Shown piece by piece: positions 2,927 to 59,014 of a stretch of 64,000 nucleotides of DNA (its first letter is position 1; every line of letters begins with the position of its first letter). Below the pieces are notes generated by a model, which did not search any database, was not told the DNA's origin, and saw nothing but the letters and a program-made list of their open reading frames with translations. The stretch is taken from contig OZ316892.1 of assembly GCA_973895155.1 (NCBI GenBank), positions 20,471,869 to 20,535,868 on the forward strand, written 5' to 3'. Position numbers and translations under genes: made by a program. Source of the DNA: Marsupella aquatica. Its lineage: Eukaryota; Plantae; Marchantiophyta.

Positions 2927-3309
2927 GTAAGTACGTAAACTTACTCTCCGACCTTCGCAGTCCATCTTTCACCTCAGAGACAGAATGGAGTTACTGAAGC
3001 TCAAATTCTCTTTTTTCGTTAGATTTCTGTGTTTTCTAGTTTTTCATTAAATAGGTTTCTGTGTTGGGTCTTGCTGATGGTTTAGACAAATCACGCTAGC
3101 GGCGCTGGCCCGAAGGATTACTCAACAAAGGGTACAATAGGAACGTAGATGCTCTTCTCCTATTGTAAAACCACGATATTACACCTTTTTTTCCATACAC
3201 AGCAAAGCCGATCGATCTGGAGTTTGCTATTCAAAATGATGGGTTGGGAAATAAGCTAGTGATAGAATCTATGATAGACTTTACGTTTCGATCTCAAATG
3301 TTGTAGCAG
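2927..3309 (+). other. Probable 5'-UTR intron of the two-TM gene
   Basis: Consensus donor ATG|gtaagt at 2927, T-rich interior, acceptor ttgtagcag| ending 3309, upstream of the ATG at 3499. Confidence 0.4.
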
Positions 3310-3498
3310 GTTGGGGTTAGACAGCATAGTTCATCTGGAGCTACAGATTTGTGAGTTGCCGTTGCAGTTGTGAGAGAAAGACATCAGGGACTAGGAGCAA
3401 CGACAAGAACAAGAACAGCAACATTAGCAACAACACCACTAACAATGCATTGATCTCGATGGCAGCAATCGGTGTAGCTTCTGCGTCATAGAGCGAGC

Positions 3499-6400
3499 AT
3501 GGAGAAATCTAATGCAGAGCCAGCAACGCCGTGGTACGAGAAGTGGAGCTTGTTCGAGGAGCCCCAGGCCGAAACGCCACGAATGAAGCACCCGCTGTTG
3601 GTCTTCGTGTTCAGCAGCATTTTCGTGGTCGGGTGCAGCGTGGTGAGCGTGTGGGTGATCTGGACGTGCGTGCAGGAGTGGCCAACAACCCTGAAGATTT
3701 ACAAGAGCAATGATCCGCGGCCTCGACCGGGCTACACTTGCGCGTGTAGCTTGCCTCATGACTGGTCTGGGCCCGAGGCCGACATGGCTTTTGACCCTGC
3801 CATCTTGCACACATGCTACGAAGAACAGAAGCTCGAGACGGTCACCATTCTGCAGGTGCGAAGAAGAAACTCATCCCTCATGAGGCAAAACTCGCAATTC
3901 ACTCGATCAGGTACCTTCCATCATAATTATAACATACGTATGCAGGTAGTTGGATTTACGAGAGACTAGCCTGGTTACCCCTTCCTTTGCACGTAAATAT
4001 AAATAGAGATAACACAAACAAAAAAACAATCGTTTATCATTCGCCTTTCATCCTTGCTCCCATCCCTCCATCCCTGTTTTCTTTGCTCCCATCCCTGTTT
4101 TTTTGTCTTGCTCCCATCCTTGTGTTTTCTTTGCTCCCATCCCTGTTCTTTGGATTTGCCCTTGTCTTTGCTCCAATCCTTGTCTTTTTTATTCATTTTC
4201 AGTTAGCCCCTCATTGTCAAGGTCTAGAGGCTTCATTCTAGACAAAAGCTTTGATCGCACTTTACTAGTAAGACTGGGGCACTTGGGACTTTTTTCTCAC
4301 TAGCTAGGATGAGTGCACATTCTTACTTCTCTGAATGTAAATAGAATGAGAACAAGAACGGCTGACTGCCAATTTATTAGACTCAAATAGAGGTGAGGGG
4401 AGAAAACACATTGCACAAACAAACAAAAATGCCCTATTGTAAACTGTTCAAATTCCAATGTTTTCAATGACTTGATCCCTCCCTAGTTTTGGCCTGTACC
4501 CTCGCCTTAATCATGCCCCTTAGTCACGGTCTAGAGGCTCCACTCTAGACAATAGGCTCCGCAGGTAGCTTTGGATCATGATTGTATACTAGTTAGACTA
4601 GTTAGATTTTGCCAAAGCAAACTGAAGAGCCACTTCTCATTCTAAAGATAGACTCCAGAACAAACCTCATTTGAAATTATTTTCAATAAATGGAGATAGA
4701 TCCCTTGATTGCTGGAGGTGGAGCTTGCAAATGTTTGAATGGATGGGCTATAAACTTGTAGACAAAATAAGCACTCAGATTAAATAGCATGTACTTGAGC
4801 ACAGTCTGTGCCAGATTAAATCCATACACGTTAAACCAGAATGGGCCCCCAGTTATTGTAAAGGCAGTTGTAACAGTTTCCACTCATTATATGGTCCAGA
4901 TCGAGGTCCAGATTTAATCTCGCAGGGAATAGAAAGAAGACATTGGGCCCTGACATCTTGTATATCCATCATGTAACACTACTAGTTCATTCCCATCCAT
5001 TGCACAAATTAATGTTGAACAAATGAAAATGTCATGCAAAAACTACATCGTTAAGTGTGTCACTGTGAAAAATGTTATTGATGTGGGAAATAGTGAAGGC
5101 ATAAAAGGCAATCTTGACCCAGCCTTCCTGCCCAGCCCCTACACTTGTGCTGCCCAGCTGCAAACCTTTGGCCCTCATGACCGTTTTGTAAGTCTAAATA
5201 GTTTCTTTGTGTACTCCATTCTGTGTGTCACTGTTAAACAAAATTGTGCTTGCACAACTCAGTCCCAAGAGCTTCTCTCACTAAGCTATGCTTGTCTCAG
5301 CAAAGTCTGCTTTGCTTATAATAAATGTTTGCCCCAAGGTTTGACCCACTGTCTAAGCCAGAGAGTCTGGACCACAGGCACTGCCCTTAGATAAACACGT
5401 GCCCGTCGCATTTGTTAGTTTGAAAAGAACTTTCATCTATAATTAGGAAAATGGTCCAGCATAATGTGGCGAGGAGAGGTGGTAGGGACAGTCAGGGTGA
5501 GAGTAGAGGCATAAAAACATAGATCAAGGCTTACTAGAGAAGACTTGAAAAATTCTTTGAAAAACATTAAGGTTTTTCAAATCCAATTTTGTGTTGTAAC
5601 ACAATTAGAGTTTATTTTATCAAATTTTTAGAATATTCCAAGAATATTTTAACTAAGTTGTAGGGTAAAAATGTTCTTGAAATCTTACATTTTAGGGGGT
5701 TCAAGGATGGAGTGATGTGGGGCCTCCATATAGTGAGACCCCCAAGTCAGGAACTTGTTCAATATGTCTTATTCCCAAATATAGAATAGTATTCATTAAG
5801 CACAAGCCAGGGTCTCTGCTAGCCTTGACACTTGCCTGGCTTCCTTCAATATTAAAGTAGTTGTTTAAGTAGAAATATGTCCTAAGTGGCTCGATGCACA
5901 GCAAAGACATCTTGTGTTATTCTCATATGCTGCTTGGATTCAGGTCTTTCTCTATCTGGTGGTCGCACCCTACTTGACTTGGGCTAAGTAAAGTGAAGTG
6001 CCCGCTAAAGTGGGACTAATTCACTGTGAAAATTGATTGCAGTATGACCCTTCCATCACCTTGTTGGGGACTGAAATGCAACACATTCTTGTGGACAACA
6101 AGCTGGCAGTTCTTAGAAATTTCACAGGAGCTTACGAAATTGAAGTGGATTCGAGGGTTAGTGAGCTAACTTTGAGGAAGGGGGATCCAAAGGGATATTT
6201 CAATTCACTCCACGCTTACAAAGGTATCAAGTCTGGTTATGGTAATTGTGTGCAACGTCTTTGAATCAGCTTCAATCAGCTTATTTGAGAGTCAGGCATG
6301 CCAGTTCAGGGTTTATACATTTCACAGGAATATTATATGGAGTGTTTTCTTTGAAGAATTTTTGCCAAACTCTTACCCAATGTTTGTATTGGTTGCTAAT

Positions 6401-9400
6401 AAATACAAAGAAAGAAGCGTGAGCCAAATCCATCATGAAATTGTAGACGATCAAGCAATGCAGATGACATCTGTTTGAGGTGACTAACAATACGTAGCAG
6501 ACTTCCTTCGGACCAAAGTGACTCGACACCACATCCTATACCAAACTCTAAAAGTGTATTCATTTACTTGTATGCAGGCATTGACTCAAATACACTTGAT
6601 ATTCTTTTTGATGATATCTTGAATTCACATGGAGTTCTGGACATTCCCTCCTCTTATGTGCGATGGGGTTTTGAATTTGATTGCATGGATTGCTCAACTT
6701 GCAGCCCCTCCCATCTCAGTGACAAAATTCCCAACTTCTCCTTGAGTGAGGACATCCAGTGGGCATCCTGCTTTCCTTATGGGAAATTTGCCAACAAGTG
6801 CTCCCAAAACAACTCCTATCATGGAAAATGTAATCTTTATCCCACTTCTTTTGTCCCTCCTTTGTTTGCCTTAAAGGAGTTTCTCCAAAACTTCAAGACC
6901 TTCCAAAATATTACCAACATTACTGGTGAGTCTATCTCATTAATCCATTAGTACCCACTAAAGGTGTGTTCACACATGCAATTGTGCCATGTATTATTAT
7001 ATATAAACAAATCTGCAATTGATACTCTACAATGTGAAAACAGTCAACAACACAAATTAAAGTACCTCTTCAATTATTGTACTTTAGTACATATTTGCTT
7101 TTCAGTTTTTAAATAAATTGTCACTAAAGATGTTTGAATTTACAATATTATCACTGTTTATTTTTGTATTTACAAAAATGTCATGGTTTCCATATATAAT
7201 TTCCCTGTTTACCTCGGTAAACTTGTCATCGGTATATGAAACCGTGATATTTCTATAAATATAAAAAAAACAATGACAATAATGTGAATTAGAACATCTT
7301 TAGTGGCAAAATAATTAAAAGTTATTTTACTTTTAATTTAGTTATGTGGGAAGGGAAGGGAAATCAATCATGAGAGAGGAGGCTAATCAATCATTTTCAA
7401 AGTGAAAACTAACTAAGGTATGTAAAGTGAAACAACATTGAGTTACTAATTAGGTATAAGCTGGGATGGGATCTCCTTCCCAAACCTTTTAATAGGATAG
7501 GATTCCATAACTTAAGAGAGAGATCTATTAAATCATGCAGTTACACTAGAACAACATGGATTTAGCGGAACAAAAGCAAGCTCCATTAATAAAAAGTTTA
7601 TAACTGTAATGATAGGTCTAAATCCAGGTAGGCGTACACCTGATGCATTGACACTGGAGTCAAGTTTCATGTACTTGGTGGAGAGTGATGTTAAGGAGAT
7701 ATCAACCGTATCGTGGGGATTCGTGGAGGTGGATGATCAACACCCATGGTGGCAAAATTTACATGACATGTATCCAAATATCTCACAACAGTGCAGGACA
7801 ATGTCAAGTGTACAAGTGTGTCACCTCCCTAAGCTTTGCAGCTCTGCAATTCAAAGATTGGACCAGGATGACACATTTCACTCACATACCAGGTACAAAC
7901 TAAGGGTTACCTAAGCACTCACCTTGTTGCGAACAATTCTTGATTATTTATCAAGTAACTTCCAGGCATGAATTACTACAGTAACGACTGAATGCCAATG
8001 TTGTCCACAGTAGATCTCAACCAATAAGGAGGAGGAACAGCCAAGAAAACTTAGAAATGAAACATGGTGATATAATTTTGTTTGTAATTATAGCTTCTTC
8101 TCTCATTGCACGAATTAATGCTCAAGAAGACAGTATTTTTCTTGTGATCACTTAAGAAATCTTCTATATCCCATGTGTCACATTCTGCTACTATTCAGCA
8201 ATGTTGAGAGCTTTGGTTTCAAGATCTCATGACCTGCCTATAATGAGCTGGTAAGTCCATGCGTTGTATACAATCAACTATGAATAAGTGCAGGCTCCCC
8301 AGAAGACACCAAGTTTGCACGTAATGCACTATCCTATAAGGGCATGGGATACTATTGTTGCACTTCTCCATAATTATGTGCACGGTTTGCACTACCTTAC
8401 AAGTGCATGGGAATGTCGTATGCACTACCCATGTGTTGTCAAGTCACACACCTGAGACTCTTGATACTCTGACCGCTTATATATAGATCACATAGATAAG
8501 TGCATGTAATTACTTTATGTAGTTGGTTGCTGCACTTAATATCAAGAAATGCCTCCTATGTATAAGTCACAGTAACTGATAAATGCATGTGTACACTTAT
8601 ACATGTAAGTGCATATATTTTTGTTGTTGATGCCGGTGTAGATGCAAATTGCATTTTCTGGGTGCATTTACAAAGTTATAATATTAGGGAGCTACATGGC
8701 CGGTCCGCACTTATATATGCCTTGATATATACTACACTTATGAACATTTGACTGTAATGAGGAATTAGCTCTCTTAAAATTGAAGAAGAATTTTTGTTAC
8801 TCTCATGAACAGATGAATCAGTTGCAACGTCAGTAGAAGTACATAAACTAAAGTTAAATGTACTCAGTTAAATTTTCAATTGTCCATGAATAGGTGCATT
8901 CAACATGCAAGTGAAACCTCCTCCTGTCAAGATATGGTGGCATCAACAGGGATGGAAATAGACAATCTGTTGGTTGGTACTGAGGGAGAGAAAAATCAGA
9001 TGGCCAGAATATGTCCGCAGTCAAGTACTTGCGATTCAGTTCCTCCAAATTATGTCACTTATAAGCCTCCTGTGAATTCAAGGACTATTGAAATTGATAG
9101 CAAAAACTACATCCATGGATGGTGCATAAATACCTACAATGGTGTTGTGAGGTGACTCTCAAATTCTGAGCTAGATCAAGAGATAAAAGTACTACAGTAG
9201 CCTGATAGTCGTCTTCAGTTTTAAATTTTTGTTTGGTCTTCTTTGAATCAATCTCAATGTGTGTGGTCATCCTGTCATCATACGTGTTGGGTTTATACAG
9301 ATGCATTCTTGGGATATCATCTAACATAAGGTCTTTGGATAATTATGCCAGGCACAATGAGAGTAAATTCTTGGGGACAAGCTGCCTCAATGGGCTTTGT

Positions 9401-10364
9401 TACTTGACTGGCAAGTAAGTGAATTACATTCCTTATGCCCTTTGCATATTCAAACTTCCAAACAATACTTAACCAGGCCCCTCCTGGGTCTTGAGGACTT
9501 GATGGACAACAAAGATAGATTTAAGGACTTGACCAGGCACTTTCGAGCATGGGCCGTATGAACTCTTAAAATGCAGTAAATTTGCAGATTTTGAGATAAA
9601 AGATTGAGTGTTGGAGATGTCCTAAAAGTCTCAACTTTTGTCACTAGGTGGGTCACTAGGTGACTAACTTTTATCACTAGGTGACTTGACTTTCAAAGAT
9701 CACCCCAAACGCTTTTCAGCTTGACAAACAGAGCTCATTTTGTCATCCAAAACAATATTGGGTTTTACCATCTTAGCAATTGACTGGTTTTGCAGTGCCC
9801 TGTGTAATCAAGGCATACGCACAATATCTGTCACGGAATTAGTACTGCACTTTGAGCATTAAGTTGAGATGGCCCACCATTGAAAGGGCCTGGGCAAGTC
9901 CTCAATTGATCTCTGCCGGGTGTCCATTAAGTCAGGAAGCTAGATGCAGAAGGGCCCTGTTAAGTCCTTTGTAGAAACTTCTATAAAAGTTCAGTTCAAT
10001 AGGGAAATTTTTGAGGCCTTGCTATTGTCCAACTCTTACAACTGCTCGCTTTCAATTTTTGGGGCAATGTTTTTGATCCTAAGCTAAAATCGTTCATGAT
10101 TGTGGCAGATACAATGAAATGGATGATGTGGGTGGTGACTTTCATGTCTTGTCACTTCAAGAATACAACCCCAAGAGTAAGGAAGAATCATTCACATGCT
10201 ACAAGGTGAAGAAGAAATCAGCAATGAGATGGACCATTGATACATTTGGAGTTTTGTTTGGATGGATTGGGACATTGCAGTTGGCGTTTGTCATTGTGCT
10301 CCCTATTCTACTTGATTATATAAAAGCAGTGGAAAAAGATGAAGAGATTCCTATGGACCTCTAA
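3499..10364 (+). CDS. Six-exon gene for a 558-aa two-TM protein with a large Cys-rich loop (DEG/ENaC/P2X-like topology). Exons 3499-3855, 6043-6223, 6578-6925, 7616-7892, 8894-9151, 10109-10364
   Basis: Six separate ORF-track fragments join through canonical GT..AG introns with matching phases 0,1,1,2,2. Donors: CAG|gtgcga, AAG|gtatca, CTG|gtgagt, CAG|gtacaa, GAG|gtgact. Acceptors: ttgcag, atgcag, tgatag, gaatag, tggcag. Summed CDS is 1677 nt = 558 aa + stop. TM1 LLVFVFSSIFVVGCSVVSVWVIW; TM2 WTIDTFGVLFGWIGTLQLAFVIVLPILLDY. Confidence 0.85.
4050..4190. repeat. Degenerate tandem repeat (ttgctcccatccctgttt-like, ~25-30 bp) in intron 1
   Basis: Five imperfect copies of 'ttgctcc(c/a)atcc'. Explains the spurious K/Q-rich ORFs at 3975-4303. 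Confidence 0.7.
7107..7320. mobile_element. Fold-back MITE-like palindrome in intron 3
   Basis: ~90-bp imperfect inverted arms (tgtcactaaagatgttt...atggtttccatata / tatatgaaaccgtg...aacatctttagtggca) around a central gtttacctcggtaaac. Confidence 0.7.
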
Positions 10365-12041
10365 AATGCAAAATGCCACATCATCACGTGATTGGATTAG
10401 AGTTACTTGAAGTTTTTCTTTGGAAGGGCTTACAAAAAATCACGGACACTCGTTTAGGATTTGAGGTGGGGAGCCCACAAATAGTGACCCCCCTACCTGG
10501 ATATAATTGCACACGTGAAGATAATCTGATTGGCACAAAATGATCCTTGAGGTTATTTGAGAGGTTGTATATGTATAGGTAAGGCATAATTTTATCCCAT
10601 GGAAAGGCTTTAAGAGGCTCAGCTTCTATGTACCATGTTGCTATAAGACACCATATAACCTGATTGATACAAAAAGATCCAAGAGGCTATTTGAGTGCAG
10701 TTCCATTCGGGTTCCATTGCATTGCTCACTTCCTCATTGAATGACGTAATATGAAATCTGCACGAAAAAATCTTTTGCAAATCATTAACTATTAACTAAT
10801 CTGAACCACCGCTGTTCATTTTCTAAAATCTGGCGATCTGAGAACGTCACCATAATTAGTCATTTACAATGTTCTTCACACAGTAAAAAGGTGAGGAAAA
10901 AATGATCTGGGTCACCCTAACTAATGTAGTCCATCATAATGTTCTTAACAAAGGAAAAAGTGAGGGAAAAGTGACCACTTAATCCTCCCACAACTTCTGG
11001 GACGGTGGACTAAACTAACTGGACCTCACTAAACCCGGGACTAAACCAAAGATTCCCCCAAAAATGTCTTGCCACAAATTTTATAAGTCACTTACACTCG
11101 AGGTTACATTCAATTATAAATTCAGAATTTAGCTCCCTTTGAACACTTGAACTTGATAGGATCCCAAAATGTTCTTGAATAAACTTTGATACTCTTTGTA
11201 AGTAAATAAAGTTATTTTATTTCCATAATTTGTGCCACTTTTACTAGAATCTTGGTTAAAATATTTCCATACATCATGCAAGTTTAAGAATTCTAATCCA
11301 AGCAAAATCCTCAGGAAAGGAAAGCCCAGATATACACAAATCCCACTCCCATCCCAGATTCCCAATCCCATCCGTAAATCTTGCCGAATCTGGGCTTTCC
11401 TTTCCTGGAAAAATTCCAATGTGACAAGGGAAATGCCTAGGTGAAGTGAAATGCCCCCCGATGCTTTCCTACAAGGACTTAGGATAAGAGAACTTAGGGT
11501 GATAGGGGGAAGGGCCCATGACAGGCGAATGGTCAGGGTGACAACCAAACTAAACAAAACATTCAAATGAAAAGGATATAGCTTTTGGATCATCAGTAAT
11601 AAAGTAGGGTCCATTTTTCATCAACCGTGCGGAAACTAACATTCAAAATGTCTCCTAATATATTCTTTTACATCCATAATGCCAATAACTAACATTGGTA
11701 CATCATGTTGACAACAAAAGTTTCCCGCAGGTCACCATTTATACTCCACAATGTTATCCTCATAAACTTGTGCCCACCAATGTACACTAGCTGGAGAACC
11801 CTTTTCAGGGCAACCATAACTGATGTCTGGGCAGGAGTTAGTGTGTACAACCTGGCATCCGCAATGCTCAAAACAGCTTCCCAGCTGCAATATTATCTTA
11901 AATATACAAAATGTCACCTCTATGGGAGCTATATGGGCAATAACAGTCACTCCAAACTGGAAGCTCTCGTTTTGGGGGGCATTATACCCCAAAATGCCCC
12001 CCCTCCGGAACTTAACTGTATACAAAATGTTTTCCAGTGTC

Positions 12042-13110: not shown

Positions 13111-14548
13111 TGTTTCTGCTCGGTTATTGTCATATGCACGGACATCTACGGAAATCCCAGTGATGATGTGTAGGGGAACCCTAGACCATTCCGGAGGACG
13201 GCGGGAGCAGTGTTGTGTAAGCTGTCATTTCCGTAGCGTCGTGGCGGTATCGTTGTCTATTGCTCTCCTCTTTTGCGGCTCGCTCGACTTTCGGTAGTGT
13301 TTTTGGGATGAGCTGAGACTCGAGAAGTTTGATTGAATTCATGGAGAAAATGAAATGCAGGTGTGAGGAGGACGGTCTTTGAACAGACCTTGTTTGACGC
13401 ATTCGAGGTAGTCATTGGCGACTCGGATGCCGAGAATTGTATATCAAGCTTCTGAGAAAGGTACGTTCTGTCTGCCTGGGCTCTCACCTTCTCCATTTCA
13501 GCTCTCTCTAAATGGCACTGACGAGAGAGAGGGAGAGCGAATGGGGAAATAGGTGGATCGATTGATAGCCTTGGGAAATGCTCTGCTTCATCTGAAATAG
13601 ACAGGAAAGCCGAATTCAAGCAATGTTAGTACCAATTCATTGAGAGAAGTGAATGCACACGTGAACGGATGATATTCACTGTCAGAGAGGAGTGGTTCAG
13701 TGGTCCAACTCCGAAGACCACCGCGGTGGCATAATGATTGTGTTCTGAATCTTTGATTGGAGACTCCAGAAAAAATAGATGGTTCTAGGAAGAATCAATT
13801 GCAAAGCGATAGAGCTATGCGTGGAGCTACTCAAGGCGGAAGACGTGAGAGCCGCAGCCCAAGAACATGAGGCGGATCTCTCTGAGGATTTCTTCGTGAT
13901 TGCCGGATATATCTACAGATGGTAAATGAACCTCATATCCTGTGCCCGTTATGGTCTCGTCCGTGTCTGTGTGTCACTCCCAATGTCACCTCTGGCTGTA
14001 CTAGTGGTGCAGGAGCGTTGGCTCTGGTTGTGCTCTCATCCTCTCTCACTCAGTCTTTGGGAGCGCTTTGTTTGATTCGTCAATTCGTTCGCAACGACAG
14101 TAGTAGGTTGAAGCATTTTGTTAAAGCTCCGCGGAGCAATCTTCTTAGCTCTTTCAACTACACTGTCTCGTTCAAGTCGTCCGCAACTACAGCAGATTGA
14201 AGCATTTTCTCAAGCTCCCTCAAGGAAATCTTAGCTCTCCTCACACTGTATCTGGTTTTCGTTTGCTACTACATTTGGTTCAAGGATTTTGTCGAAGCTC
14301 AGCACAGAATCTTACCTTTACAAACACTCTGCCTGTGCACGGGCTTTTCGAGCATTCAGTGATCTTTGAAATTGACGGACTACAATTTCTGCAATTATTG
14401 GCTCCTGCAGTTCACTTGAACGTCTCTACGGCTGTCAGGACTCCTAGTTTCTTCCCCTGTCCCATGCGATTTCTTCCTGCGAACGGACGGACAACACTTT
14501 TGATAGGGAGAGCCCTCACTTCACTCGGGGACCTTCTAGTTGGCGGCC

Positions 14549-17500
14549 ATGATAGTGCAAGAGAGAGGGACTGGGACACGGAAGACAAAGATTATTGGGT
14601 CTGAAGAGCTGAGGACTCTTGTGGGAGGGGATTCTGTAGATGACTCTGAAAAGGATGCGGAGCAGCAGCAGCAGCAGGTCGAGGCGGTGAGGAAGACTAA
14701 GAGTAGTAAGGGTGATCCGAATCAGTCATGGGTGGATTATCTGGGCTGCTTTGCGTGGTGCGACAGCCTCCTTAAGGTCGTCATCGTAGTGCTCATTGTA
14801 TCGAGTCTCGGGGTGCTGGCCTTTTACAGAAATCGTCAGGAAACCTCTGCTTTGATTTGCATCGAGGAACTCCCTAAAATTGCGGCAATTCCCAACCCAA
14901 TCCTTGATTTGAAGCATGTGAAGACGATCAAGGATTACACCAGGCATGTTGGGGTGTCTGCGGACAAATGGATTGTGCTGACTGTGTCAGAGAAACCTAC
15001 CCCGGAGGTTGAAGCATTCGCAAATCTGAAAGGATGGCAGTTGCTGGCTGTGGGTACTGCTGATGCACCGGCAGATTGGAGAGTTCCCAATGTGATCTTC
15101 CTGTCCTTTGAGCAACAGGCGGAACTCCCCTACAGGATCAACCAATTTCTGCCCCGGGGTTCTTATATCCGGAAAAACATTGGCTATCTGTTTGCAATCC
15201 AGCATGGTGCCAAAAAGATTTATGATGCCGACGAGAGTGCATCCCTCGTTAAGGACAAAGTTGAGGATATATTTGATGTTGAGCTCATGGAGTCTTATGC
15301 GCCCGTCTTGCAGTATCGGTACTTTGATACTCGGAAGGTGGTCAATCCGTTTGTGCATTTTGGCCAACGCTCTGTCTGGCCTCGTGGTCTGCCTCTGGAG
15401 GCTGTGAGTGAAATTTCCTCGGAAGTGATGTACGCTGAGGTGACGAGGGGTAGGCAATACATCCAGCAAAGTCTTGCAAATGGCCTTCCGGATGTAGATT
15501 CCATTTTCTACTACACTCGTAAATCACAAGTAGCTCCTCTTGATATTAAATTCGACTCCTTCGCACCACCTGTGATGCTGCCTCAGGGCCTCATGGCTCC
15601 TGTGAATGCTCTCAACACTCTCTTCCATTCCCCGGCATTCTGGTCTCTATTACTTCCTGTTTCCGTGGGGACGAAAACTTCGGACATTATGCGAGGATAC
15701 GTTGGGCAACGCCTGCTTTGGGAAGTTGGTGGGGTGGTTGCGTTCTATCCGCCTATGATTAGTAGGAAAGATACATTACAGGCACTTCCATTCGAGGAGG
15801 AAAAGGATTTACAGGCGAAGGTTCAGCCCCTTGTCTCGTATCTTTTGAAATGGAGGTCCCATAAGCCGAGTCTCTTTGAGAAGGTTCTGCATCTGAGTCA
15901 TTCGTTAGCTGAAGAAGGGTTTTGGGATGGCCAAGATGTGGAGCTAACGGCTGCTTGGCTGCGCGATCTCGTGTCGGTTGGTTATTCACAGCCACGGCTG
16001 ATGTCACTAGAACTCGATAGAAATCGAACCTCATGGACTTCATTAGGACATCGGGAATTTTTGCCGCACGCATTTCCAGCTCCTTATTTGGGAGTGGAAG
16101 ATAATACGGGGATGGCGAGCCAAATGACTGATCTAATCCGATGGAGGCATTTTTTTGGAAATATTGTTTTGGTTCTGCAGTGTGTTGGTCCAACGGACCA
16201 CACAGTGCTTGGCTGGCGGATGTTCTACGGCCGTCTTTTCAAGCACATTGTGGTTCTGGGACCTCAAGCTGATGAGGGGCTTCGAGTAGAGACAGTCAGT
16301 GAGCAACCTTACACGTATGTAACGATTTGACGTCGAAAATTATATTCCTACGTAGATGAACAATCTGAATGAAATGAATTGCAGATAAACACGGCCCTGG
16401 CTTAGGAAGCGATAGAGAAGGGACAGAGAATCAGAGTTAAAAGGGTGGCCCTGCCTATATCTTTGACCGATGTCTATTGTACTGCGTTAAGAAACACGTC
16501 TAGGAGCGTCGCTTATGACTAACTTATTTTATGTGCATTGCAGAACCCTGACCGGTATTTTTGATCGGTATCCGAATTCGGATGGCTTTCTCATGATTAA
16601 GGACACTGTTGTGCTGAACTACTGGAATTTGCTTCTCGCCAACAAAACAAAACTTTGGAATGTTCACAAGGTTTGCTTTCTAACACTGTTCACACTTCGT
16701 TCGTGCTCCTGCCTGTCATTTTGGATGAAGCCTTCTGGATTAGGTCAAGGGACAGAAGACATCGAGCAGAAACTCGATGCTTGCAGACCATCGTTTCAGT
16801 CGAGTCTTATACTGTGAGGTCTATATCGCAAGTCATTGATCATAGAGTGAGATCATTAATATGAGGGAAAATTTTCCCCAGTGTTTATTGAGTGCTCATT
16901 TTCTAAACTGGAAGCTAGAATTCGGTTTTGTTTTGGTAATCATTTGTATACTTATGTTGAGGTACTAGAGTGAATTGCAACGAATGCCGTTTTGATTGCG
17001 TACGATGCACTGTGGGGTCAGAAGAAGGTTTGTCCCCCCGAAGCGTTCACTGAATGTACTTTTTTTTGCAGGTGGCTGGCGCATGGCAAAAATTCAGCGT
17101 GAAGGACAATGGCACCGCAACAGATTTCGAAGCACCAGAAGTGAAAACGAGCTTTATCCAGGCTTTCAAAAGTCTGCCACCTGAGTTTCGCAAATCCTAT
17201 CGGAAGGCAATCGGTGAAGATTTCTACGTCATGAGCCCTTCTGATGTGTTTTATGTCCCTCAGCGATATGTCACTAAATTCATTACCCTGATCACACCGA
17301 TTGCCCAGGCGGGGCTTCGCCAAGAGCTGGCAATTCCAATGATCTTTCTGGCTTTAGATAAGCCCGACAACTACGATTCTTCTGCTCTGAGCAGCATGGT
17401 GTATATTGAAGAAACGAGATTGGAGAAGCTTGGTGGGGATCCAGCTCTCTTCTACAACCCAGACGTGGATGCAGTTTGTCCATGGAGGCCAACTACAGAG

Positions 17501-17569
17501 GCTGAACTAGCGCGGATCTTGAAAACTATTGGCAAGAGTGACTTACATCTGTTGGATGCCTTTGATTAA
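14549..17569 (+). CDS. STL: STELLO-like glycosyltransferase (DUF288), ~796 aa. Exons 14549-16314, 16544-16670, 17072-17569
   Basis: Starts MIVQER (cf. plant STELLO MLVQDR) with an N-terminal TM. Family motifs KWIV, GWQLLAVG, RKNIGYLFAIQHGAKKIYDAD, VNPFVHFGQRSVWPRGLPLE, GLPDVDSIFYYTRK, DLVSVGYSQPRLMSLELDR, LNYWNLL.ANKTKLW, SDVFYVP. Introns are GT-AG with phases 2 and 0 consistent. Confidence 0.93.
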
Positions 17570-20631: not shown

Positions 20632-21906
20632 ATGGCTCAAGCATCCCCGCCACCTGCGCCTTTGGCCTCCTCACCCTCGACAGGATTTTTGTCATCCAAC
20701 TTGCTCCTGCCTGGAATCAATTTATATCCATTCATTCCATGTTTTGTTGGAGCTTTTACCTTGGCATCATATCTGTTCATATTGCTGCTGATGAGATGTT
20801 GGAACTTTAGGCGCTTCAAAAATAAACTTTTGAAAGAAACTCTTCTTTACAAGGACCTGAGTAAGGCATTGAAAGGGATTGGGGGTAACAGCGGTGACAA
20901 ACAGCGATCAATGCAGGATGCTGCTGAGGAGTTTTTACAAGATGAAGACGTTAGGGAAGTACTGGGGGTAGGAGGTTTTGGCAAGGACCTGAATAAATAC
21001 GTATTGAGCAGGATCGCAGATGATGAAGGTCACGACAAAAAGCCATCGACTGCGGATGTTTCTGTGGATCTTTCTCCAGATGAAGACAGTATCGAAACAT
21101 TGGGGATAGAAGTTTTGAGAGCAAAAGAATTTTCCTTGAGACTCCACGATCTTTGTCGCAAGCTTTCAACCATTTTAGCAAGTGAGAGGCGAATTAGATG
21201 CTTTCTGATTCCACGATGGAAGTGGAGTACGAGTGAATATATTATGTCTCTGATTACAGAGAAGAAGCAACCTTCAAAAGTTGCAGACGAAAAGTCATCC
21301 ATCGATCATAGCTCCCTGTTGTGCGTGCCAGTATCAATCACTTACATTCGGAAAAGGATACAGAGATCGAGTTCGGACCCTCATGTGGAAGGAACCCAAT
21401 TATTGGCAAATATTTGCAAGGATGCAAGCTTTGAAGGAGCTCAGTTGGCTGTTGTTTGCAAGGCGGTCCAAATAATGCAAGAAAACCTGGAGGCCCGATG
21501 GAAGATGTCCCTCAGCATTATCAGGTTTACAGCTGCCAATCTTCTGACAATCTATGCTTTCTGGTACACTTCAACCAACTCTATACAGTACCTTGCCACT
21601 TACATCGCTGGAGAGCTGATAAATAGCGTGTACAGTCAACCTTTGACAGATTGGCTGATTCCCAAACTCGATCAGCAGATCGGGAATGTAGTGTTGATGT
21701 TAAAGCTACGTTTGGAGGATGAAGTATTGTCCGGTGCATCGCGAGAGGAGCTTCCTTTCACGGACTGGGTGAGTAGCTATTTCAGGAAATTCGACGAGGT
21801 GAAGGAACTGCTAAGCATTCGTGACCAGGGAATCGGTCGGCTCAGGAAGGGAGGTTTTCCTCGCAAGACAATAACGTCTGTAACTAATTGTGTGTACCTT
21901 TCTTAA
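20632..21906 (+). CDS. Uncharacterised membrane protein, paralogue 1 (424 aa, intronless CDS)
   Basis: Long ORF conserved in frame with paralogues at 31046 and 57962. ATG 20632 aligns with the paralogue starts. Likely 5'-UTR intron 20187-20595 (AAG|gtactt ... ctaccag|). Pro/Ser-rich N-terminus, TM LYPFIPCFVGAFTLASYLFILLLM. Confidence 0.8.
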   Translation: MAQASPPPAPLASSPSTGFLSSNLLLPGINLYPFIPCFVGAFTLASYLFILLLMRCWNFRRFKNKLLKETLLYKDLSKALKGIGGNSGDKQRSMQDAAEEFLQDEDVREVLGVGGFGKDLNKYVLSRIADDEGHDKKPSTADVSVDLSPDEDSIETLGIEVLRAKEFSLRLHDLCRKLSTILASERRIRCFLIPRWKWSTSEYIMSLITEKKQPSKVADEKSSIDHSSLLCVPVSITYIRKRIQRSSSDPHVEGTQLLANICKDASFEGAQLAVVCKAVQIMQENLEARWKMSLSIIRFTAANLLTIYAFWYTSTNSIQYLATYIAGELINSVYSQPLTDWLIPKLDQQIGNVVLMLKLRLEDEVLSGASREELPFTDWVSSYFRKFDEVKELLSIRDQGIGRLRKGGFPRKTITSVTNCVYLS

Positions 21907-31045: not shown

Positions 31046-32335
31046 ATGTCGACTCCAGCATCCTCACCACCCGCTCAAACATTCACGCCAACTGCGCCTG
31101 TTACCACCCCAGCATCACCACCTTCGTCAGGGATCTTGTCATCTGACTTGTTCCTACCCGCAATCAGCTTATATCCATTCCTTCCATGTCTGGTTGGAGT
31201 TCTTACGTTGGCATCATATCTGTTCATATTGCTGCTTATGCGATGTTGGAACGCGAGGCGGTTCAAAACGGAACTCTTGAAAGAGACACTTCTTAACAAG
31301 GATCTGAGTAACGTCTTGAAGGGGATCGCGAGTAATAGAGGTGACAAAACGCGATCAATGCTGGATGTCTCTGTGGAAGGTTTTCAAGATGAAGACGCTA
31401 ACGAAATAATGGGGGTAGGAGGTTTTAACGCGGACCTGAATGACGTGATGAAGGGGATCGGAGGTGATGCAGGTCACAAAAACCTTCCGGATGTTACTGT
31501 GGATCTTTCACCAGATGAAGACGGTACCGAAACACTGGGGGTAGAAGTTTTCAGAGCACAAGTGTTTTCCTCGAGACTCCACGATCTTTGCCGCAAGTTT
31601 TCTACCATTCTTGCAAGTGAGAGACGAATAATATCCTTCCTGATTCCACGTTGGACGTGGAGTAGGAGGGAGTATGTTATGTCCCTCATTACGGCGAAGA
31701 AGCAACCTTCAAAAGTGGTAGACGAACAGTCATCCATTGATCAAGGTTCCGTGTTCTGCGTACCAGTATCAATCCCGTTCATTCGGAAGAGGATACAGAG
31801 ATCCAGTTCGGACCCTCGTTTGGAAGGACCCCAAGTATTGGCAAATATCTGCAAGGATGCAACTTTTGAAGGAGCTCAGTTGGCAGTTGTTTGCAAGGCG
31901 GTCCAAATAATGCAAGAAAACCTGGAGGGCCGATGGAGGATGTCCTTCAGCATAATCAGGTTTACAGTTGCCAACCTTCTGACAATCTACGCCTTCTGGT
32001 ACACCAACGTCAACACGATAGAGTACCTTTCCGCTTACATCGCAGGAGAGTTGGTAAGCAGCGTGTACAGTCAGCCTTTGATCGATTGGCTGATTCCCAA
32101 ACTCGATCAGCAGATCGGGAATGTAGTGTTGATGCTCAAGCTGCATTTGGAGCACGAAGTATCGTCTGGTGCATCGCGGGAGGAGCTTCCTTTGACGGAC
32201 TGGGTGCGCAGCTATTTCAGAGGGTTTGACGAAGTAAAAGAACTTCTAAGTATTTGCGATCAGGGAGTTAAGGCGAGGAAGGGAGGTTTCCTTCGCAGGG
32301 CAGCAAAGTCTTTAGCCAGAATGTCCCTTTCTTAA
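31046..32335 (+). CDS. Uncharacterised membrane protein, paralogue 2 (429 aa)
   Basis: Intact ORF aligning full length with paralogue 1. The upstream intron and 3' flank share motifs with paralogue 1 (ctcattgaattgtga, acccgacccga, cactactcaga). Confidence 0.8.
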   Translation: MSTPASSPPAQTFTPTAPVTTPASPPSSGILSSDLFLPAISLYPFLPCLVGVLTLASYLFILLLMRCWNARRFKTELLKETLLNKDLSNVLKGIASNRGDKTRSMLDVSVEGFQDEDANEIMGVGGFNADLNDVMKGIGGDAGHKNLPDVTVDLSPDEDGTETLGVEVFRAQVFSSRLHDLCRKFSTILASERRIISFLIPRWTWSRREYVMSLITAKKQPSKVVDEQSSIDQGSVFCVPVSIPFIRKRIQRSSSDPRLEGPQVLANICKDATFEGAQLAVVCKAVQIMQENLEGRWRMSFSIIRFTVANLLTIYAFWYTNVNTIEYLSAYIAGELVSSVYSQPLIDWLIPKLDQQIGNVVLMLKLHLEHEVSSGASREELPLTDWVRSYFRGFDEVKELLSICDQGVKARKGGFLRRAAKSLARMSLS

Positions 32336-39708: not shown

Positions 39709-42700
39709 CTACTTGTGATGCAATTGCAAAACCTGCAATACGTCACGGTGTCTAGAGAAACTCTCCAAAGGAATCACTTTGGTAAATGCGTCAGCCGGGT
39801 TGAGTTTACCATCAATCTTGACTACCTCAAACAAATTATCAGACACAGCCTGCCTGATAAAATGGTACCTGACGTCAATGTGCTTCACTCTGCTGTCCAT
39901 CACCTGGTTCACAGCAAGGTGGAGCGCACTTTGACTATCACAATGGAGCTTCACATTCCCCTGTGGCAATCCCATTTCAGTGATAAGTCTATCCAACCAA
40001 ATCGCTTCCTTTGCTGCTTTCGCAGCTGCAACATACTCCGCTTCTGTAGTAGACTGAGCAATACACTTCTGCAAAGTAGACCTCCAACTTATGCATCCAC
40101 CGCCAAGTGTGAACACGTATCCTGTTGTTGATCTCCTTCGGTCCAAATCTTGTCCATAGTCAGAATCTACATAGCCAATCAATGATCTAGCATTCGTTGC
40201 ATTCGCATCAAATAAAAGACCATGATCCACGGTACCCTTCAAGTACCTGATAATCCACTTCACTGCTTCCCAGTGTACCTTCCCTGGATTCGACATGTAC
40301 CTGCTCACCTTGCCCATAGCCATGGCAAGATCAGGTCTAGTGCAAGTCATCAAATACATGAGACTCCCCACTGCCTTGTCATATGGAACCTTTGACATCA
40401 ACCCCTTCTCTGTGTCATCCGTAGGACAGAACGCTGATGATAACTTGAAGTGTGGAGCCAACGGGGTACTTACTGGCTTGCTATTCTCCATGTTGAACCT
40501 TGCAATTACCTTCCTCGCATAACTGCTCTGCGTCAATCATAGCTTGCCAGCCTCCAAGTCCCTAGTGATCTCCATACCCAAAATCCTCTTAGCTGGCCCT
40601 AAGTCCTTCATCTTAAACTCTGCACTAAGCAGTGCCTTGAGCTTAACAATCTCAGACCTATCCTTGGCTGCAATTAGCATGTCATCCACATAAAGTACTA
40701 AAACAATGAACCCAAAGACAACATTCTTCACCGGTTTCAAATACACACAAGGGTCAAATACACTTCTGTGAAAACCTTGTGACCGAATCCAATCGTCAAA
40801 CCGCTTGTTCCACTGTCTTGGTGACTGCTTCAACCCATACAAGGATTTCAGCAATCTGCAAACCAATTCCTCCTGTCCTCTCTTCACAAAACCTAGCGGT
40901 TGTCTCATGAAGATCACCTCTTCCAATGTGCCATAGAGGAAAGCTGTGACAACATCCATCTGATCTAGGAGCAGACCAAACATTACAACAAGTACACACA
41001 ATAGTCGTATTGTAGAGTACTTAGCAACTGGTGAGAAGACCTCATTGTAATCCACACCTTTCTCTTATGTGAATCCCTTTGCTACCAATCTAGCCTTGTA
41101 GACCTTCGATCCACCTCCTATGGAATTATCTTTCAGCTTGTAAATCCACTTGCTGTCCACCACTTGCTGACCCTTAGGCAGCTTAACAAGCTCCCAAGTT
41201 TTGTTGTCCTTTAGTGACTGCATCTCCGTTTGCATTGCTGCAGTCCACTTCTGCTTCTCTTTTGAAGCACTTGCCTCATGAAATGAAGAAGGTTCTCCTT
41301 CTTCCAAAATTAACGCATCACCCTCATCATCAGCTGTAAAATCATCCTCTTGCAGTTGAGATGAATCAACCCACTGTCCATACCTTGATGGAGCGCGTAC
41401 AGTGCGACCAGATGTTCTTCTAGCCGATGACTCCGGTTGATCTGCGTGTGCTGGTACAATTTGAAGCTCAATAGCATCCACTTGTTGCTCACCAGCATCA
41501 ACAAACTCCTCTGGTTCCTCTGGCACAGGAACCAGCTCCATAATTGGAGCAACTCCTTCTCTCCGGTCATGCACCTCATAACCAATCTCCCCCTCAACGA
41601 GATCCGGGATAGGAGATTTTCCTTTGTCAGTACGGGAGACCTGAGTATTCTCCCCCTCCTTCAATAATCTCGATTCATTGAAGGAAACATCCCTACTGAC
41701 AACGAGCTTACAGGCAATAGGATCCCATAGCCTATAGGCTTTCACACCACTCTGGTACCCAAGAAAAACACATTTCCTGGAGGTAGGATCCAACTTGGTC
41801 CTATTCTGCTTTGGTGTGAGAGCATATGCATCACTTCCAAAAATTACCAAGCCATGATAGTCTGCTTGCCGCTTATAGCGCATCTCAAATGGCATTTTGA
41901 AATTGATAGCACTAGAAGGAGAAAGATTTACCAAATAAGCTGCAGTATTGACAGCTTCTGCCCAAAATTCTTGTGGTAAACCTGATTGGCTCAACATACT
42001 CCGTGACCGCTCCAATAGTGTCCGATTGAGCCTCTCAGCGACACCATTCTGCTGCGGAGTATAAACTGTGGTGAGATGGCGAGTTATCCCCTGTTCTGAA
42101 CAGTACTCTTCAAATTCCATTGAAGTGTACTCCCCGCCGTTGTCTGACCTCAGACTCTTCACCCTTGTATCCAAACACTTGATCGTGTTTCCAATCTGAT
42201 TCTCCACCTGGGCCTTCCACTTCTTAAAAATGGACAAGACATCAGACTTATGCATCATGAAATAAATCCACACAAATCTTGAGTAATCATCAATAAATGA
42301 TACATAGTACAACTTTCCAGAGTGTGAGGGAGTCGGGGATGGACCCCACACGTCACTATGTATGTACTCAAGAACCGCTTTGGAACGATGAGTTCCAACA
42401 CCAAAAGCACGACGATGCTGCTTTCCAAGAATGCAATGCTCACAAAACTCTAATTTACAAGATTGCAAATCAGAAATGAGTCCATTCTTCCGTAAGATAG
42501 CCAAACCCTTCTCACTCATGTGGCCTAGCCGTGAATGCCACAGTTGAGTCATCTCCTCGTGAGACTTGGTTACATTGGCCTCTCCACATACAGTATTGCC
42601 CTGTAACACATACAAATTCTTTTGTCTACTCCCCTTCAAAATCACTATCTCTCCCGACCTGACTTGAAGTTCACCATCAATAACGCTCCATTGATGACCA

Positions 42701-44016
42701 TTTGAATCCAACACACCGAGTAAAATCAGATTCTTACGCATGCCAGGTACATACCTGACTCCGGACACTGTGCGCACAGCGCCATCAAACATTTGAATCT
42801 TCACAGACCCAATTCCCTCAATTTGACAGGAGTGATCATTTCCCATCAGAACTGAACCGTTTGAAACAGAGTAAGAACTGAAAAACTCACGAATGTAACA
42901 AATATGAAAAGAGCAAGCACAATCAAGAATCCACACATCATCTGCTCTCCTAGATGACGTGCACAGGGCATACCCCCAGCTTCATAAAACATACTCATCA
43001 TTGAGTAAATCAGCTTCTCCATCAGCCCTAGCCACATTTGCCGATGAAGTTTCCGCTGCCTTTCCCTTACAGTCTCGCTTGAAGTGTCCAACTTGGTTGC
43101 ACTTCCAACATGTCACCTGCCTCCTCTGAGGGGATTTACCCTTGGACTTAGATCTGGATTTAGATCTAAACTGGGTTCTACGGTCCCCAGTTGGTCACTG
43201 CATACTCCTCCCACGGTTAACATTGAGGGCAGCACCAGATGATGAAGGCTGTGATGTGATGTGCATCTTCTGCTGAAGATCATCACTAAGCAGAGAACTT
43301 ACCACGTCATTGTATGAAATGGTATCCCTATCACGATGCAACAACACTCGTGATAGAGACTGGTAAGATGGAGGCAATGAACTAAGAAGCTGTAGAGCCT
43401 TCGTCTCATCATTCAAAGTCTCCCCAAGGTTTTCCAAGTCAACGACCATGTCGTTGAAAGCATCCACATGGTCTTGCAACTTCGTACCAGATTCCTTCAT
43501 CCTGAAACTCATCAGTTTGTAGGAAGTGTAGAGCCGGTTCGACAACTCCTTGCGGTGATACTTGCTCTGCAATTCCGCAAACAAGGACATGCAATCCTTA
43601 TGTGCACCTAACTGCTTGATGATGGGAGGCATGAGATAGAGTGTAACACACCACACTCCCTGCTCCTGCATGTGGTCCCATTGTTTCTCATCAACATCGT
43701 CTTCACGAGGGCTCAGCAGTTGGCCCATCCCTGACGCATAAAGCACTCCCTTCACCTGCTTCTCCCATAGCAAGTAGTCAGAGCGCCCATCATACTTTGT
43801 CACTTCATACTTGGGTCCCCCAAGCTTGAAAGTCCCCATCTTCTTCTTTACCGTGAGCTCCGGTAGTAGTACTGCTTCCTCCACCATACGCCGCACCGGT
43901 GATGGTATTGGTGTCACGTGCTCTTCCTCCTGCTCCTCTCTCTGCCCCTGAAACCTCCGCGGTGATCCTCGTGCTTCAAGTTTCACGTCTTCGAAAAACT
44001 CCTCCGAATCACTCAT
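39709..44016 (-). pseudogene. Copia gag-pol polyprotein in one reading frame, interrupted by four in-frame stops
   Basis: UBN2-type gag, zinc knuckle CWKCNQVGHFKRDC, protease WILDCACSFH, GAG-pre-integrase LWHSRLGH, integrase HSDVWGP/RSDNGGEY/QQNGVAER, RT KARLVAKGF/LYVDDML, RNaseH DSDY/STTEAEY/KHID. Stops at 43195-43197, 42982-42984, 41065-41067 and 40537-40539. Confidence 0.93.
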
Positions 44017-45156
44017 ATGAGAAAGTCACAAAAAATGTTGTTTTTCACAACTTCTCAAAAAACTCGAAACTCAACACCGCCGCGTAGCCCACAAAGCTAG
44101 GAGTCCAATACTGAAAACCAAAATCAAAATCGAAATTTGACGGAAAAGTTATTCAAATTTCGGTCGAGGTGGGTAAAACCTTGGGAAACTCCCCCATTTT
44201 GACCACCTCAGGGAATAACCGAAATACCAAGTACAACCCGTTGTCGGAATTGCGATGTGATTGGTGCGCTGCATTGCCAACTTCAATGGCTACGACCTCG
44301 CCGAAAAATAACCAAAAAAGTTACCGTTCGGCGGATGAAATCTTTGTCGGACGGTCAAAAAATAGCTCTCTGGTTTTTTAGAATATTCTATGACCCTTGT
44401 ACAGGCCCTGTGGGAATTTTGGAAGAACAATCGAGGGGCTGACATGTGTCCTCGAACCCCCAAAACCCCCTACCACCCTTCGTCGTCGAAATCTGGTCGC
44501 GCGCGCAGAAAATACACACGGCAGAATGTACCCCTCGACACCAAACGCAAGATATCTCACTCGGGTTTTGACGAAATCAAGATCCGATTTCAGATTTGGA
44601 AACTAGACTCCGAGGCGATGAAGATCGATATAAGAAGCACCCAAAACGAGGAAAGAACGAGGGAGAAAAAAATTGGTAAAGATGACAGATTTCTCTCAAT
44701 TGCCATAGCCAATTTCGAATCAGTTTTTCAAAGAGAAAAAAATGGTACCTTGTCAACAACGAATGTTGATCAATTGCACTTGGTGCCGTCACCAAGTCCA
44801 ACAAGGTAATTGATTTTGCTTAGCCTTCCTCTTTGCATCAAAGAGCCAATCCCGGACTCAAAAACAATCGTCTTGCCTCAATCTCTCCGTTGAGTCAAAA
44901 CACTTGACGCTTCTCCCTCCGAGTCGATTGCCAACTTTCTTCACAAAATCCAGAACGACGAAAACTTAGATCTCTCTGCACCATGAGCTCCGTTCAACGA
45001 TTTCTTCACACCGTTAGAAAGCTCTTGCCCTGATCTATCCGTTGAGCCCATAAACTCCAAGTTCCATGCGATGGAACTCTGGAAAATCCACCAACACTCA
45101 ACGTTGGAAAAACCGTCATGAAATCCCGTCACGAACACACGTCACCTCCCAAGCAT

Positions 45157-46173: not shown

Positions 46174-47188
46174 CCTTGAAAGAGACCATTTAATAAATTT
46201 TGATTGTTCCCCCGCGAAAAACCCCACGGGAAGGGCGAACAGAGAAGGCCCAAAAAGGCCAGACAACAGACCCCGCCACAGGGTAACCCCCACGAGTGTC
46301 GGGGCAGACCAAGGGCACAGGACCAACAAGCACAGGGAAAAAGAGACACATCTACCACCTACACATCACATGGACAACGAATCACATCACTAACACCAGC
46401 CAGTCACATCCCAGTGACGATGCAGCCGCTGCCAAAAGAGAGCCAACCCCTACGCCTCTCATCAATCCAGGCTTTGGCCCTAAGAAGTCTGGTGCATTTC
46501 CTACCCGGAAGAGAACGGCGACTAACCGCATACAGATTCTCAGCCGCCTAAGTAAGAACCAGGCCCAAATCAAATGAGCGTCTGCCATGCAATTGGAACA
46601 TATGTGTGTTCCGCCCCATCCAAAGCCGCCACAGAATCTGATGCAAAACAAAAAGTTGTGCAACCTGCTTCGCATCTTTCCCACAAGCAGCCTCCAACAA
46701 GACATTCAGACCTCGACCGAATGGCAAACCCAATCCACTAAGAAAAGCCTGACATATGCTCCAGCTTCTAACTGCATGTGTACATCCGAAAAAAATATGG
46801 GGAATAGTCTCCAATATCCCGCAGCAAAGTTTGCACTCTCCATTGCTTACATCGATTCTGAGCGCACGCTCTCCAGAGAAAAGACCCCCAACAATAATTC
46901 TCCATATAAAGGTCTTGCCTCTGACTGGCAAATCAGAGCTCCATAGCTTAGTCCATCTCACATTCCAAACCATCTCCGGTTGGGAGAGAGACCAAATCCT
47001 GTTAAGCCTCTCATGAGTAGAGGTCTTGGGTCTCAAAAAATCATATACTCGACAGTTCTCAATCCTGAAGTTCCTCAGACCAACTCCCGCCTTGTCACTC
47101 CAGCGCCATTGCTTGGCATACAGGAAGTATTCAGTACAACAGAAATCTGTGCTCCACAGACGCTCCAAGAAAGACCTGGCCAACAGCA
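46174..47188 (-). mobile_element. 5'-truncated L1-type LINE (zf-RVT C-terminus plus 3' UTR)
   Basis: ORF 46548-47189 has KTFIWRI...CKLCCGILETIPHIFFGC...LWRLWMGRN. Perfect 18-bp TSD atgatgaggttctttatt at 46156-46173 and 47189-47206. Confidence 0.9.
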
Positions 47189-47809
47189 ATGATGAGGTTC
47201 TTTATTGAACGGATGAATAAAGATTGAATGTATCACTTTTATATTAATATGTTTGACTTTTTGCCTGAATTACATGTTTGCAATGCACAACCATGTTTGC
47301 CTGGCCTCAAAAACTTACCCTCACCTCGACATCTTGCCCTCGCCTCCAAATCATACCCTCACCTTGACATCTTGCCCTCTCCTTGATATGTTGCCCTCTC
47401 CTCGACATCTTGCCCTCACTCGAAGTCTTTCGTGCAACGCACGGGCATGGGGCTAGTTATTGAATAGGATAGGAAAAAAACACATACTTTTTACAGAAAA
47501 GGGCCAAAAAAGAGTACAAAAGAATAAACAAGAGAGGTCCCAATTGGACAAAACCAAACGCAAAAGAAGTGAGCAAAAAGACACCCCTAAAAACCAAGAA
47601 AGAGGAACTAAAACAAGTGAGCAAAAGGAAACCCCTAAAAACCAAGAAAGAGTAACTAAAATTACCTCAAATGGACCGAGGTCCTCATCATTCCTAGCAA
47701 ATGTGGCAAAAGCTAATGGTCTACATCAAGTGTCGAAACTAAATCAACAAGTGGGATTGGGATGTCCTATAGGGGGCTAGCCACTGTGGAGTCACGCTAG
47801 CACCCACTG

Positions 47810-57961: not shown

Positions 57962-59014
57962 ATGTCGACTCCAGCATCCTCACCACCCGCTCAAACATTC
58001 ACGCCAACTGCGCCTGTTACCACCCCAGCATCACCACCTTCGTCAGGGATCTTGTCATCTGACTTGTTCCTACCCGCAATCGGCTTATATCCATTCCTTC
58101 CATGTCTGGTTGGAGTTCTTACGTTGGCATCATATCTGCTCATATTGCTGCTTATGCGATGTTGGCACAAGAAGCGGTCCAAAACGGAACCCTCGAAAGA
58201 GACACTTCTTCACAAGCATCTGGGTAACGTCTTGAAGGGGATCGAAGGTGATACTGTGGATCTTTCACCAGATGAAGACGGTACCGAGACACAGGGGAAA
58301 CTCCACGATCTTTCCCGTACGCTTTCTGCCATTCTTGCAAGTGAGAGACCAATGATATCCTTCCTGATTCCACGTTGGACGTGGAGTACGAGGAAGTATG
58401 TTATGTCCCTCATTACGGCGAAGAAGCAACCTTCAAAAGTGGCAGACGAACAGTCATCCATTGATCAAGGTTCCGTGTTCTGCGTACCAGTATCAATCCC
58501 GTTCATTCGGAAGAGGATACAGAGATCGAGTTCGGACCCTCGTTTGGAAGGAGCTCAGTTGGCAGTTGTTTGCAAGGCGGTCCAAATAATGCAAGTAAAC
58601 CTGGAGGGCCGATGGAGGACGTCCTTCAGCATAATCAGGTTTACAGTTGCCAGTCTTCTGACAATCTACGCCTTCTGGTACACCAACGTCAACACGATAG
58701 AGTACCTTTCCGCTTACATCGCAGGAGAGCTGGTAAGCACCGTGTACAGTCAACCTTTCATCGATTGGCTGATTCCCAAACTCGATCAGCAGATCGGGAA
58801 TGTAGTGTTGATGCTCAAGCTGCATTTGGAGCATGAAGTATTATCTGGTGCATCGCGGGAAGAGCTTCCTTTGACGGACTGGGTGCGCAGCTATTTCAGA
58901 GGGTTTGACGAAGTAAAAGAACTTCTATGTATTCGCGATCAGGGAGTTAAGGCGACGAAGGGAGGTTTCCTTCGCTGGGCAAAAGAGAGTATAGCCGGTA
59001 TGTCCTTTCCTTAA
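57962..59014 (+). CDS. Uncharacterised membrane protein, paralogue 3 (350 aa, internally deleted)
   Basis: Near-identical to paralogue 2 apart from four in-frame deletions (44+9+11+15 = 79 aa); no stops. Confidence 0.72.
   Translation: MSTPASSPPAQTFTPTAPVTTPASPPSSGILSSDLFLPAIGLYPFLPCLVGVLTLASYLLILLLMRCWHKKRSKTEPSKETLLHKHLGNVLKGIEGDTVDLSPDEDGTETQGKLHDLSRTLSAILASERPMISFLIPRWTWSTRKYVMSLITAKKQPSKVADEQSSIDQGSVFCVPVSIPFIRKRIQRSSSDPRLEGAQLAVVCKAVQIMQVNLEGRWRTSFSIIRFTVASLLTIYAFWYTNVNTIEYLSAYIAGELVSTVYSQPFIDWLIPKLDQQIGNVVLMLKLHLEHEVLSGASREELPLTDWVRSYFRGFDEVKELLCIRDQGVKATKGGFLRWAKESIAGMSFP

Follow-up and report, generated by a model that had tools for sequence, protein, structure and literature searches.

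A 64,000 nucleotide (nt) stretch of the genome of the liverwort Marsupella aquatica (contig OZ316892.1, positions 20,471,869 to 20,535,868; here the window) contains a six-exon gene which appears to represent an undescribed and unannotated family of two-helix glycoproteins of liverworts. The predicted product is a membrane glycoprotein with a large cysteine-rich loop between its two helices. We tentatively propose that it forms a homotrimer of ENaC/PAC type and acts as a pore or sensor which responds to a ligand or to pH, its filter being different from the one in animal sodium channels; we put the chances of this reading slightly below even. The family would then represent the ENaC/PAC type of trimer in land plants, on a cysteine scaffold peculiar to it and with a pore without the Gly-Ala-Ser (GAS) motif; it would be too diverged for family profiles and either kept patchily or acquired in bryophytes, which we consider possible rather than probable.

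The gene is intact and real, with junctions predicted from genomic sequence. Its exons (Table 1) are separated by five introns, all of them GT..AG, with phases 0, 1, 1, 2 and 2 at the predicted junctions. The spliced frame has 1539 nt with a single stop at its end and codes for 512 amino acids (aa); there is also an in-frame stop directly upstream of the ATG frame of exon 1. All five splice donors are within the top 1.0–2.7% of GT sites in the region and the five acceptors within the top 0.2–8.7% of AG sites, as ranked by a rough matrix of plant type with approximate weights. A first-pass annotation of the window had already noticed that six open frames splice in phase, which is correct, but gave a length of 558 aa, which no combination of the listed in-phase alternative splice sites can reach. 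This was probably a miscount, since its cysteine count and its six glycosylation sequons fit the same exon set.

The same annotation described an N-terminal tail of about 32 residues, two transmembrane helices (TM1 and TM2) and a short acidic C-terminal tail, all of which agree with hydropathy and translation; the C-terminal tail has about 16 residues. The loop enclosed by the helices has about 411 aa, not about 460. The total of 18 cysteines also holds, but only 16 are in the loop (3, 0, 6, 3, 3 and 1 in exons 1 to 6), the other two being in TM1. All six N-x-S/T sequons mentioned there are present in the product, together with a seventh at residue 409. We infer from these sequons that the loop probably faces outwards, away from the cytosol.

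The family is defined by comparison with a second liverwort. A HMMER search of 1.84 billion representatives with exon 1 gave three matches: a hypothetical protein of Riccia fluitans (R1flu_024929, KAL2613237.1, 767 aa; P0002), a fragment of 225 aa (P0003) and a repeat artefact, which has been discarded. The Riccia protein has the same architecture and order as the window product, although its tails are longer and it has about 110 extra loop residues, with more cysteines, after the counterpart of exon 4. With blastp, the spliced product is 24% identical to it over residues 18–376 (expectation value, E, 1e-28) and 38% over residues 394–492 (E 3e-12). In the opposite direction, tblastn of the Riccia protein against the window finds exon 3 (E 9e-14) and exon 6 (E 7e-5). 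In a multiple alignment, 150 of 473 residues are identical. The two proteins have six tryptophans and 15 cysteines in common; these are all but one of the 16 loop cysteines of the window product, and they include the whole exon 3 cluster of six, C221–C270. Within the end regions, identity is densest in the stretches immediately outside TM1 and TM2. Residues W61, Y68, N71, P73, Y79, T80, C81, C83, S84, L85 and P86 are invariant in the product, the Riccia protein and P0003.

When exons are compared individually with the Riccia protein, no shuffled sequence out of 300 does as well as exons 1, 3, 5 (17 of 37 identities) or 6, and one of 300 does as well as exon 4. Exon 2 is not significant: It has 11 identities in 57 positions, equalled by 69 of 300 shuffles. 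We have kept it in the model because exon 1 ends in phase 0 while exon 3 requires phase 1, and because of its spacing; its splice sites and a weak likeness to P0003 complete the basis for it.

No further relative appears among 4507 candidates when the Riccia protein is used as a query, and searches of contigs from metagenomes, viruses and prokaryotes have yielded none. As only the Riccia protein and one fragment have been detected, the family looks rare, going by word-based searches of low sensitivity, in which the Riccia protein escaped detection with the exons as queries. The first-pass annotation referred to a class not recognised in angiosperms. The only named relative being a liverwort, the claim concerns bryophytes, not angiosperms.

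A diverged copy of the gene is found in sequencing runs X3 and X4 (organism B), where positions 3300–10600 are represented both by the window sequence and by a second version, whose introns are about 9% diverged; the two have similar depth. The contig set of these runs is about twice that of run X1, and the two copies would fit a hybrid or an allopolyploid. Comparison with the copy from run X3 gives 8 differences in 255 sites of exon 6 and 14 in 152 sites of the intron next to it (P = 0.012). Exons 5 and 6 have at least 11 changes, five synonymous and six nonsynonymous (P = 0.11 against neutral); among the changes listed, those in TM2 are all synonymous. None of the 12 indels listed, out of 29, lies inside exons 5 and 6, and several are found in their flanks. 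This comparison rests on 40 of 73 difference rows and contigs drop variants, so the constraint is suggestive only.

These data bear on the possibility of a wrong gene model or a pseudogene, whose open frames would splice by chance. The genomic origin of the junctions, the lack of significance of exon 2 and the balance of synonymous and nonsynonymous changes would agree with it. Nevertheless, it is very unlikely: Homology is collinear across five exons, with its common cysteines, the frame has no stop or frameshift, exon 6 is less diverged than the adjacent intron, and none of the indels listed falls within exons 5 and 6.

The proposal of a channel starts from the architecture. Two helices in a protein of this size are described as the architecture of the ASIC/ENaC/PAC/P2X class (PMC10378246). 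The core common to ENaC and PAC is given as twelve beta strands flanked by two helices, and PAC has it without discernible sequence homology to ENaC (PMC7904269), so that blank sequence searches leave the fold possible. According to PMC6197857, strands beta1 and beta12 of ENaC, which adjoin the helices, tie the palm to the membrane. The conserved stretches in our protein are in the same positions, directly outside TM1 and TM2, and we take them as candidates for these strands.

A possible mechanism would be as follows. Both tails would be cytosolic, and the disulfide-bonded loop would face the cell wall or the lumen of an organelle. The post-TM1 and pre-TM2 stretches would pair in a beta sheet, as strands in the lower part of a palm, and three TM2 helices would line the central pore of a homotrimer. 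A cue bound by the loop (acid, a peptide or a wall fragment) might shift the palm strands and open the pore. The weakest step of the proposal is the selectivity: The pore may be non-selective or anion-leaning, as in PAC, which would fit the basic pre-TM2 stretch and the missing GAS motif.

Structure predictions provide some information. Two AlphaFold2 models have low confidence (predicted local distance difference test, pLDDT, 44 and 40, from alignments of 6 and 5 rows), and fold searches started from them are therefore uninformative. The first model has strands at residues 98–101 and 110–112 of the Riccia protein and presents the pre-TM2 stretch as a helix, with low confidence. We have also used ESMFold2 with three copies of residues 28–119 and three of the first 76 residues of exon 6. 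The score is 0.55, compared with 0.00 for the best of three controls, with at least 65% contact agreement and a partner pLDDT of at least 57. Among solved complexes, 51 of 78 reach the mark for this tool, as do 2 of 108 mismatched pairs (in eukaryotes, 39 of 65 solved complexes and 2 of 126 pairs of unrelated proteins); at 0.60 or under, it is reached by only 5 of the 78 solved complexes and by all four passing mismatches (of 180). The result lends weak support to a 3+3 assembly of these pieces. It suggests that the two ends of the protein meet, rather than showing a trimer, for reasons given below.

The support remaining for a channel is thus the architecture, the conserved stretches flanking the helices and this one weak complex prediction. 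A number of results weigh against it. With E values up to 10 allowed, Pfam profiles for ASC (PF00858) and P2X (PF00864), the families named in the first-pass annotation, and for PAC match none of the six single exons and neither the Riccia protein nor P0003, in a scan of individual exons and two homologues where HMMER filters drop weak matches. In NCBIfam, nothing is near the cut-off. Sequence searches of PDB find no ENaC/ASIC, PAC or P2X channel among the matches listed. The His-Gly (HG) motif before TM1 is absent from all three N-terminal tails, and GAS from both TM2 helices, as had been noticed for the window; neither the window protein nor the Riccia protein has G-x-S in any register. The cysteines are distributed over the whole loop, and their densest cluster is about 200 residues before TM2, unlike the thumb of ENaC. 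The ESMFold2 result has its own limits: The pair consists of two pieces of one chain, unlike those used in the calibration of the tool, no interface is given, the test has no power to separate pairing within a subunit from a trimer, and the pass may come from likeness to solved structures.

The ENaC-like motifs which had been recognised by eye are, for the most part, no better than those of shuffled sequences, another point against a channel. The post-TM1 motif is equalled by 3714, 4910 and 2898 of 5000 shuffles of the three proteins (58–98%), and the TM2 motif by 629 of 5000 for the window (12.6%) and 181 of 5000 for Riccia (3.6%). The helix of an unrelated neighbouring protein scores 9 on the TM2 motif, against 10 and 11. 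TM2 fits the ASIC motif quoted in the first-pass annotation in three registers, none of them significant, although the conserved W-x-G suits the register chosen there. Two of the three TM2 glycines which had suggested ASIC are not conserved: Riccia keeps G482, but not G475 and G479.

By its defining features, the protein is not a member of the DEG/ENaC family, as judged from sequence. PMC7308080 reports high conservation of HG and GAS across this family, whose hallmark is given as seven conserved disulfides with a thumb and a beta-ball (PMC6197857). The 15 conserved cysteines are not mappable onto these disulfides for want of a reliable alignment or model. The first-pass annotation was right on the gene, the topology and the lack of HG and GAS. 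Its divergent ENaC/P2X-superfamily channel is still a plausible reading, although most of the motifs quoted for it are no better than those of shuffled sequences.

These results also fit a two-helix surface glycoprotein whose ectodomain has a fold unrelated to trimeric channels: a receptor, an adhesin or a ligand-binding protein, for example in contact with microbes or between gametes. The lack of a sequence link to any channel family, motifs not above chance and unconserved TM2 glycines agree with it. In addition, a rare and highly diverged protein, with one full-length relative and 24–38% local identity, would fit a recognition function. On the other hand, tails of about 32 and 16 residues leave little room for signalling, conservation peaks adjoin both helices, and the 3+3 assembly gives a weak signal which is absent from the controls. 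We consider this alternative a serious one, though on balance rather improbable.

A different possibility is an accessory subunit without a pore, which would escort or regulate another membrane protein: The product could be distantly related to TMEM248/TMEM219, or belong to a different two-helix type whose loop is beta-rich (CDC50-like or CD36-like). When the Riccia protein is compared with the Atlas by language-model features, the only matches are two TMEM248/TMEM219 clusters, with a score of 0.76 and 134 of 256 features in common. This is a lead only, because a higher level, 0.8, is attained by shuffled proteins in a third of cases. The clusters have much shorter proteins (305–323 aa), mostly from chordates, and neither the TMEM248/TMEM219 profile (PF14940) nor that of any such family in Pfam matches the six exons or the two homologues. 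We think that an accessory subunit is unlikely.

The proposed channel may be compared with three known systems. The likeness to DEG/ENaC/ASIC includes two helices, short tails, a cysteine-rich loop of similar size and predicted strands beside the helices; the differences are the motifs and the Pfam and PDB matches which our protein lacks. Channels of this family carry an amiloride-sensitive sodium current. PAC (TMEM206) also has two helices around a loop ectodomain, which is beta-rich in PAC, while the fold is only proposed here. Sequence searches link our protein neither to the PAC family nor to PAC chains in PDB, and the PAC loop is smaller and far poorer in cysteines. P2X has two helices, a cysteine-rich loop and basic residues beside the helices, but neither PF00864 nor the P2X chains in PDB match our protein. 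In P2X, basic residues at the subunit interface bind ATP.

In the literature, DEG/ENaC is stated to be absent from land plants (PMC12806904), and P2X is stated to be absent from land plants and present in prasinophyte algae (PMC11085791). Non-animal DEG/ENaCs are placed only in Heterokonta and Filasterea by one preprint (bioRxiv 10.1101/2022.06.28.497943). We have found no description of such a family in plants, in a search which missed most subscription papers and all supplements. If the channel proposal is correct, the fold would extend to land plants, with consequences for the question of a common origin of ENaC, PAC and P2X, and apoplast sensing by a channel could be tested in Riccia. With a different fold, these cysteine-rich surface proteins would still form an old family, unannotated and without a known relative.

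Table 1. Exons of the gene and predicted features of its product (positions in the window).
Feature	Positions	Strand	Description
Exon 1	3499–3855	+	Residues 1–119: start codon, N-terminal tail, TM1, conserved post-TM1 stretch, three loop cysteines
TM1 (predicted)	3595–3669	+	About residues 33–57, from hydropathy; counterpart helix in Riccia has pLDDT 76–88
Post-TM1 stretch W..(K)..Y..N.P....YTC.CSLP	3670–3756	+	Two predicted strands; candidate beta1/beta2
Exon 2	6043–6241	+	Residues 120–186; weakest-supported of the six exons
Exon 3	6578–6925	+	Residues 186–302: six-cysteine cluster C221–C270, four sequons
Exon 4	7628–7892	+	Residues 302–390: three cysteines
Exon 5	9301–9414	+	Residues 390–428: three cysteines, two common to Riccia
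Exon 6	10109–10364	+	Residues 428–512: pre-TM2 stretch, TM2, acidic C-terminal tail, stop
Basic pre-TM2 stretch F.CYKV.K.S	10191–10229	+	Conserved; candidate beta12 equivalent
TM2 (predicted)	10230–10313	+	About residues 469–496; W.I.....LF.W.G.L common to Riccia; no GAS

Introns 1 and 3 of the gene hold high-copy repeats (4520–4763, 5496–5739 and 6960–7447), with a depth in run X1 from 30 to over 100 times that of their flanks. Intron 1 also has an open, phase-keeping stretch of 93 nt with AG and GT ends (5696–5788, + strand), which overlaps a repeat and is unsupported as an exon.

Other features are found in the rest of the window. A STELLO glycosyltransferase gene with at least two long frames is at 14540–17569 on the + strand (Pfam PF03385, E 2.4e-8 for the first frame). 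Three single-frame paralogues on the same strand (20632–21906, 31046–32335 and 57962–59014) code for proteins of 424, 429 and 350 aa, which are 58–73% identical and have one N-terminal hydrophobic helix each. They have no significant match in Pfam and are absent from the protein collection by exact look-up. The stop-interrupted frames at 39709–44025 (− strand) are presumably those of a Copia-type retrotransposon, judging from their motifs. A zf-RVT remnant of an element without long terminal repeats (non-LTR) is at 46548–47201 (− strand; Pfam PF13966, E 7e-11). At 2129–2515, about 1 kilobase upstream of the six-exon gene, both strands have open frames (102 and 128 aa), which overlap.
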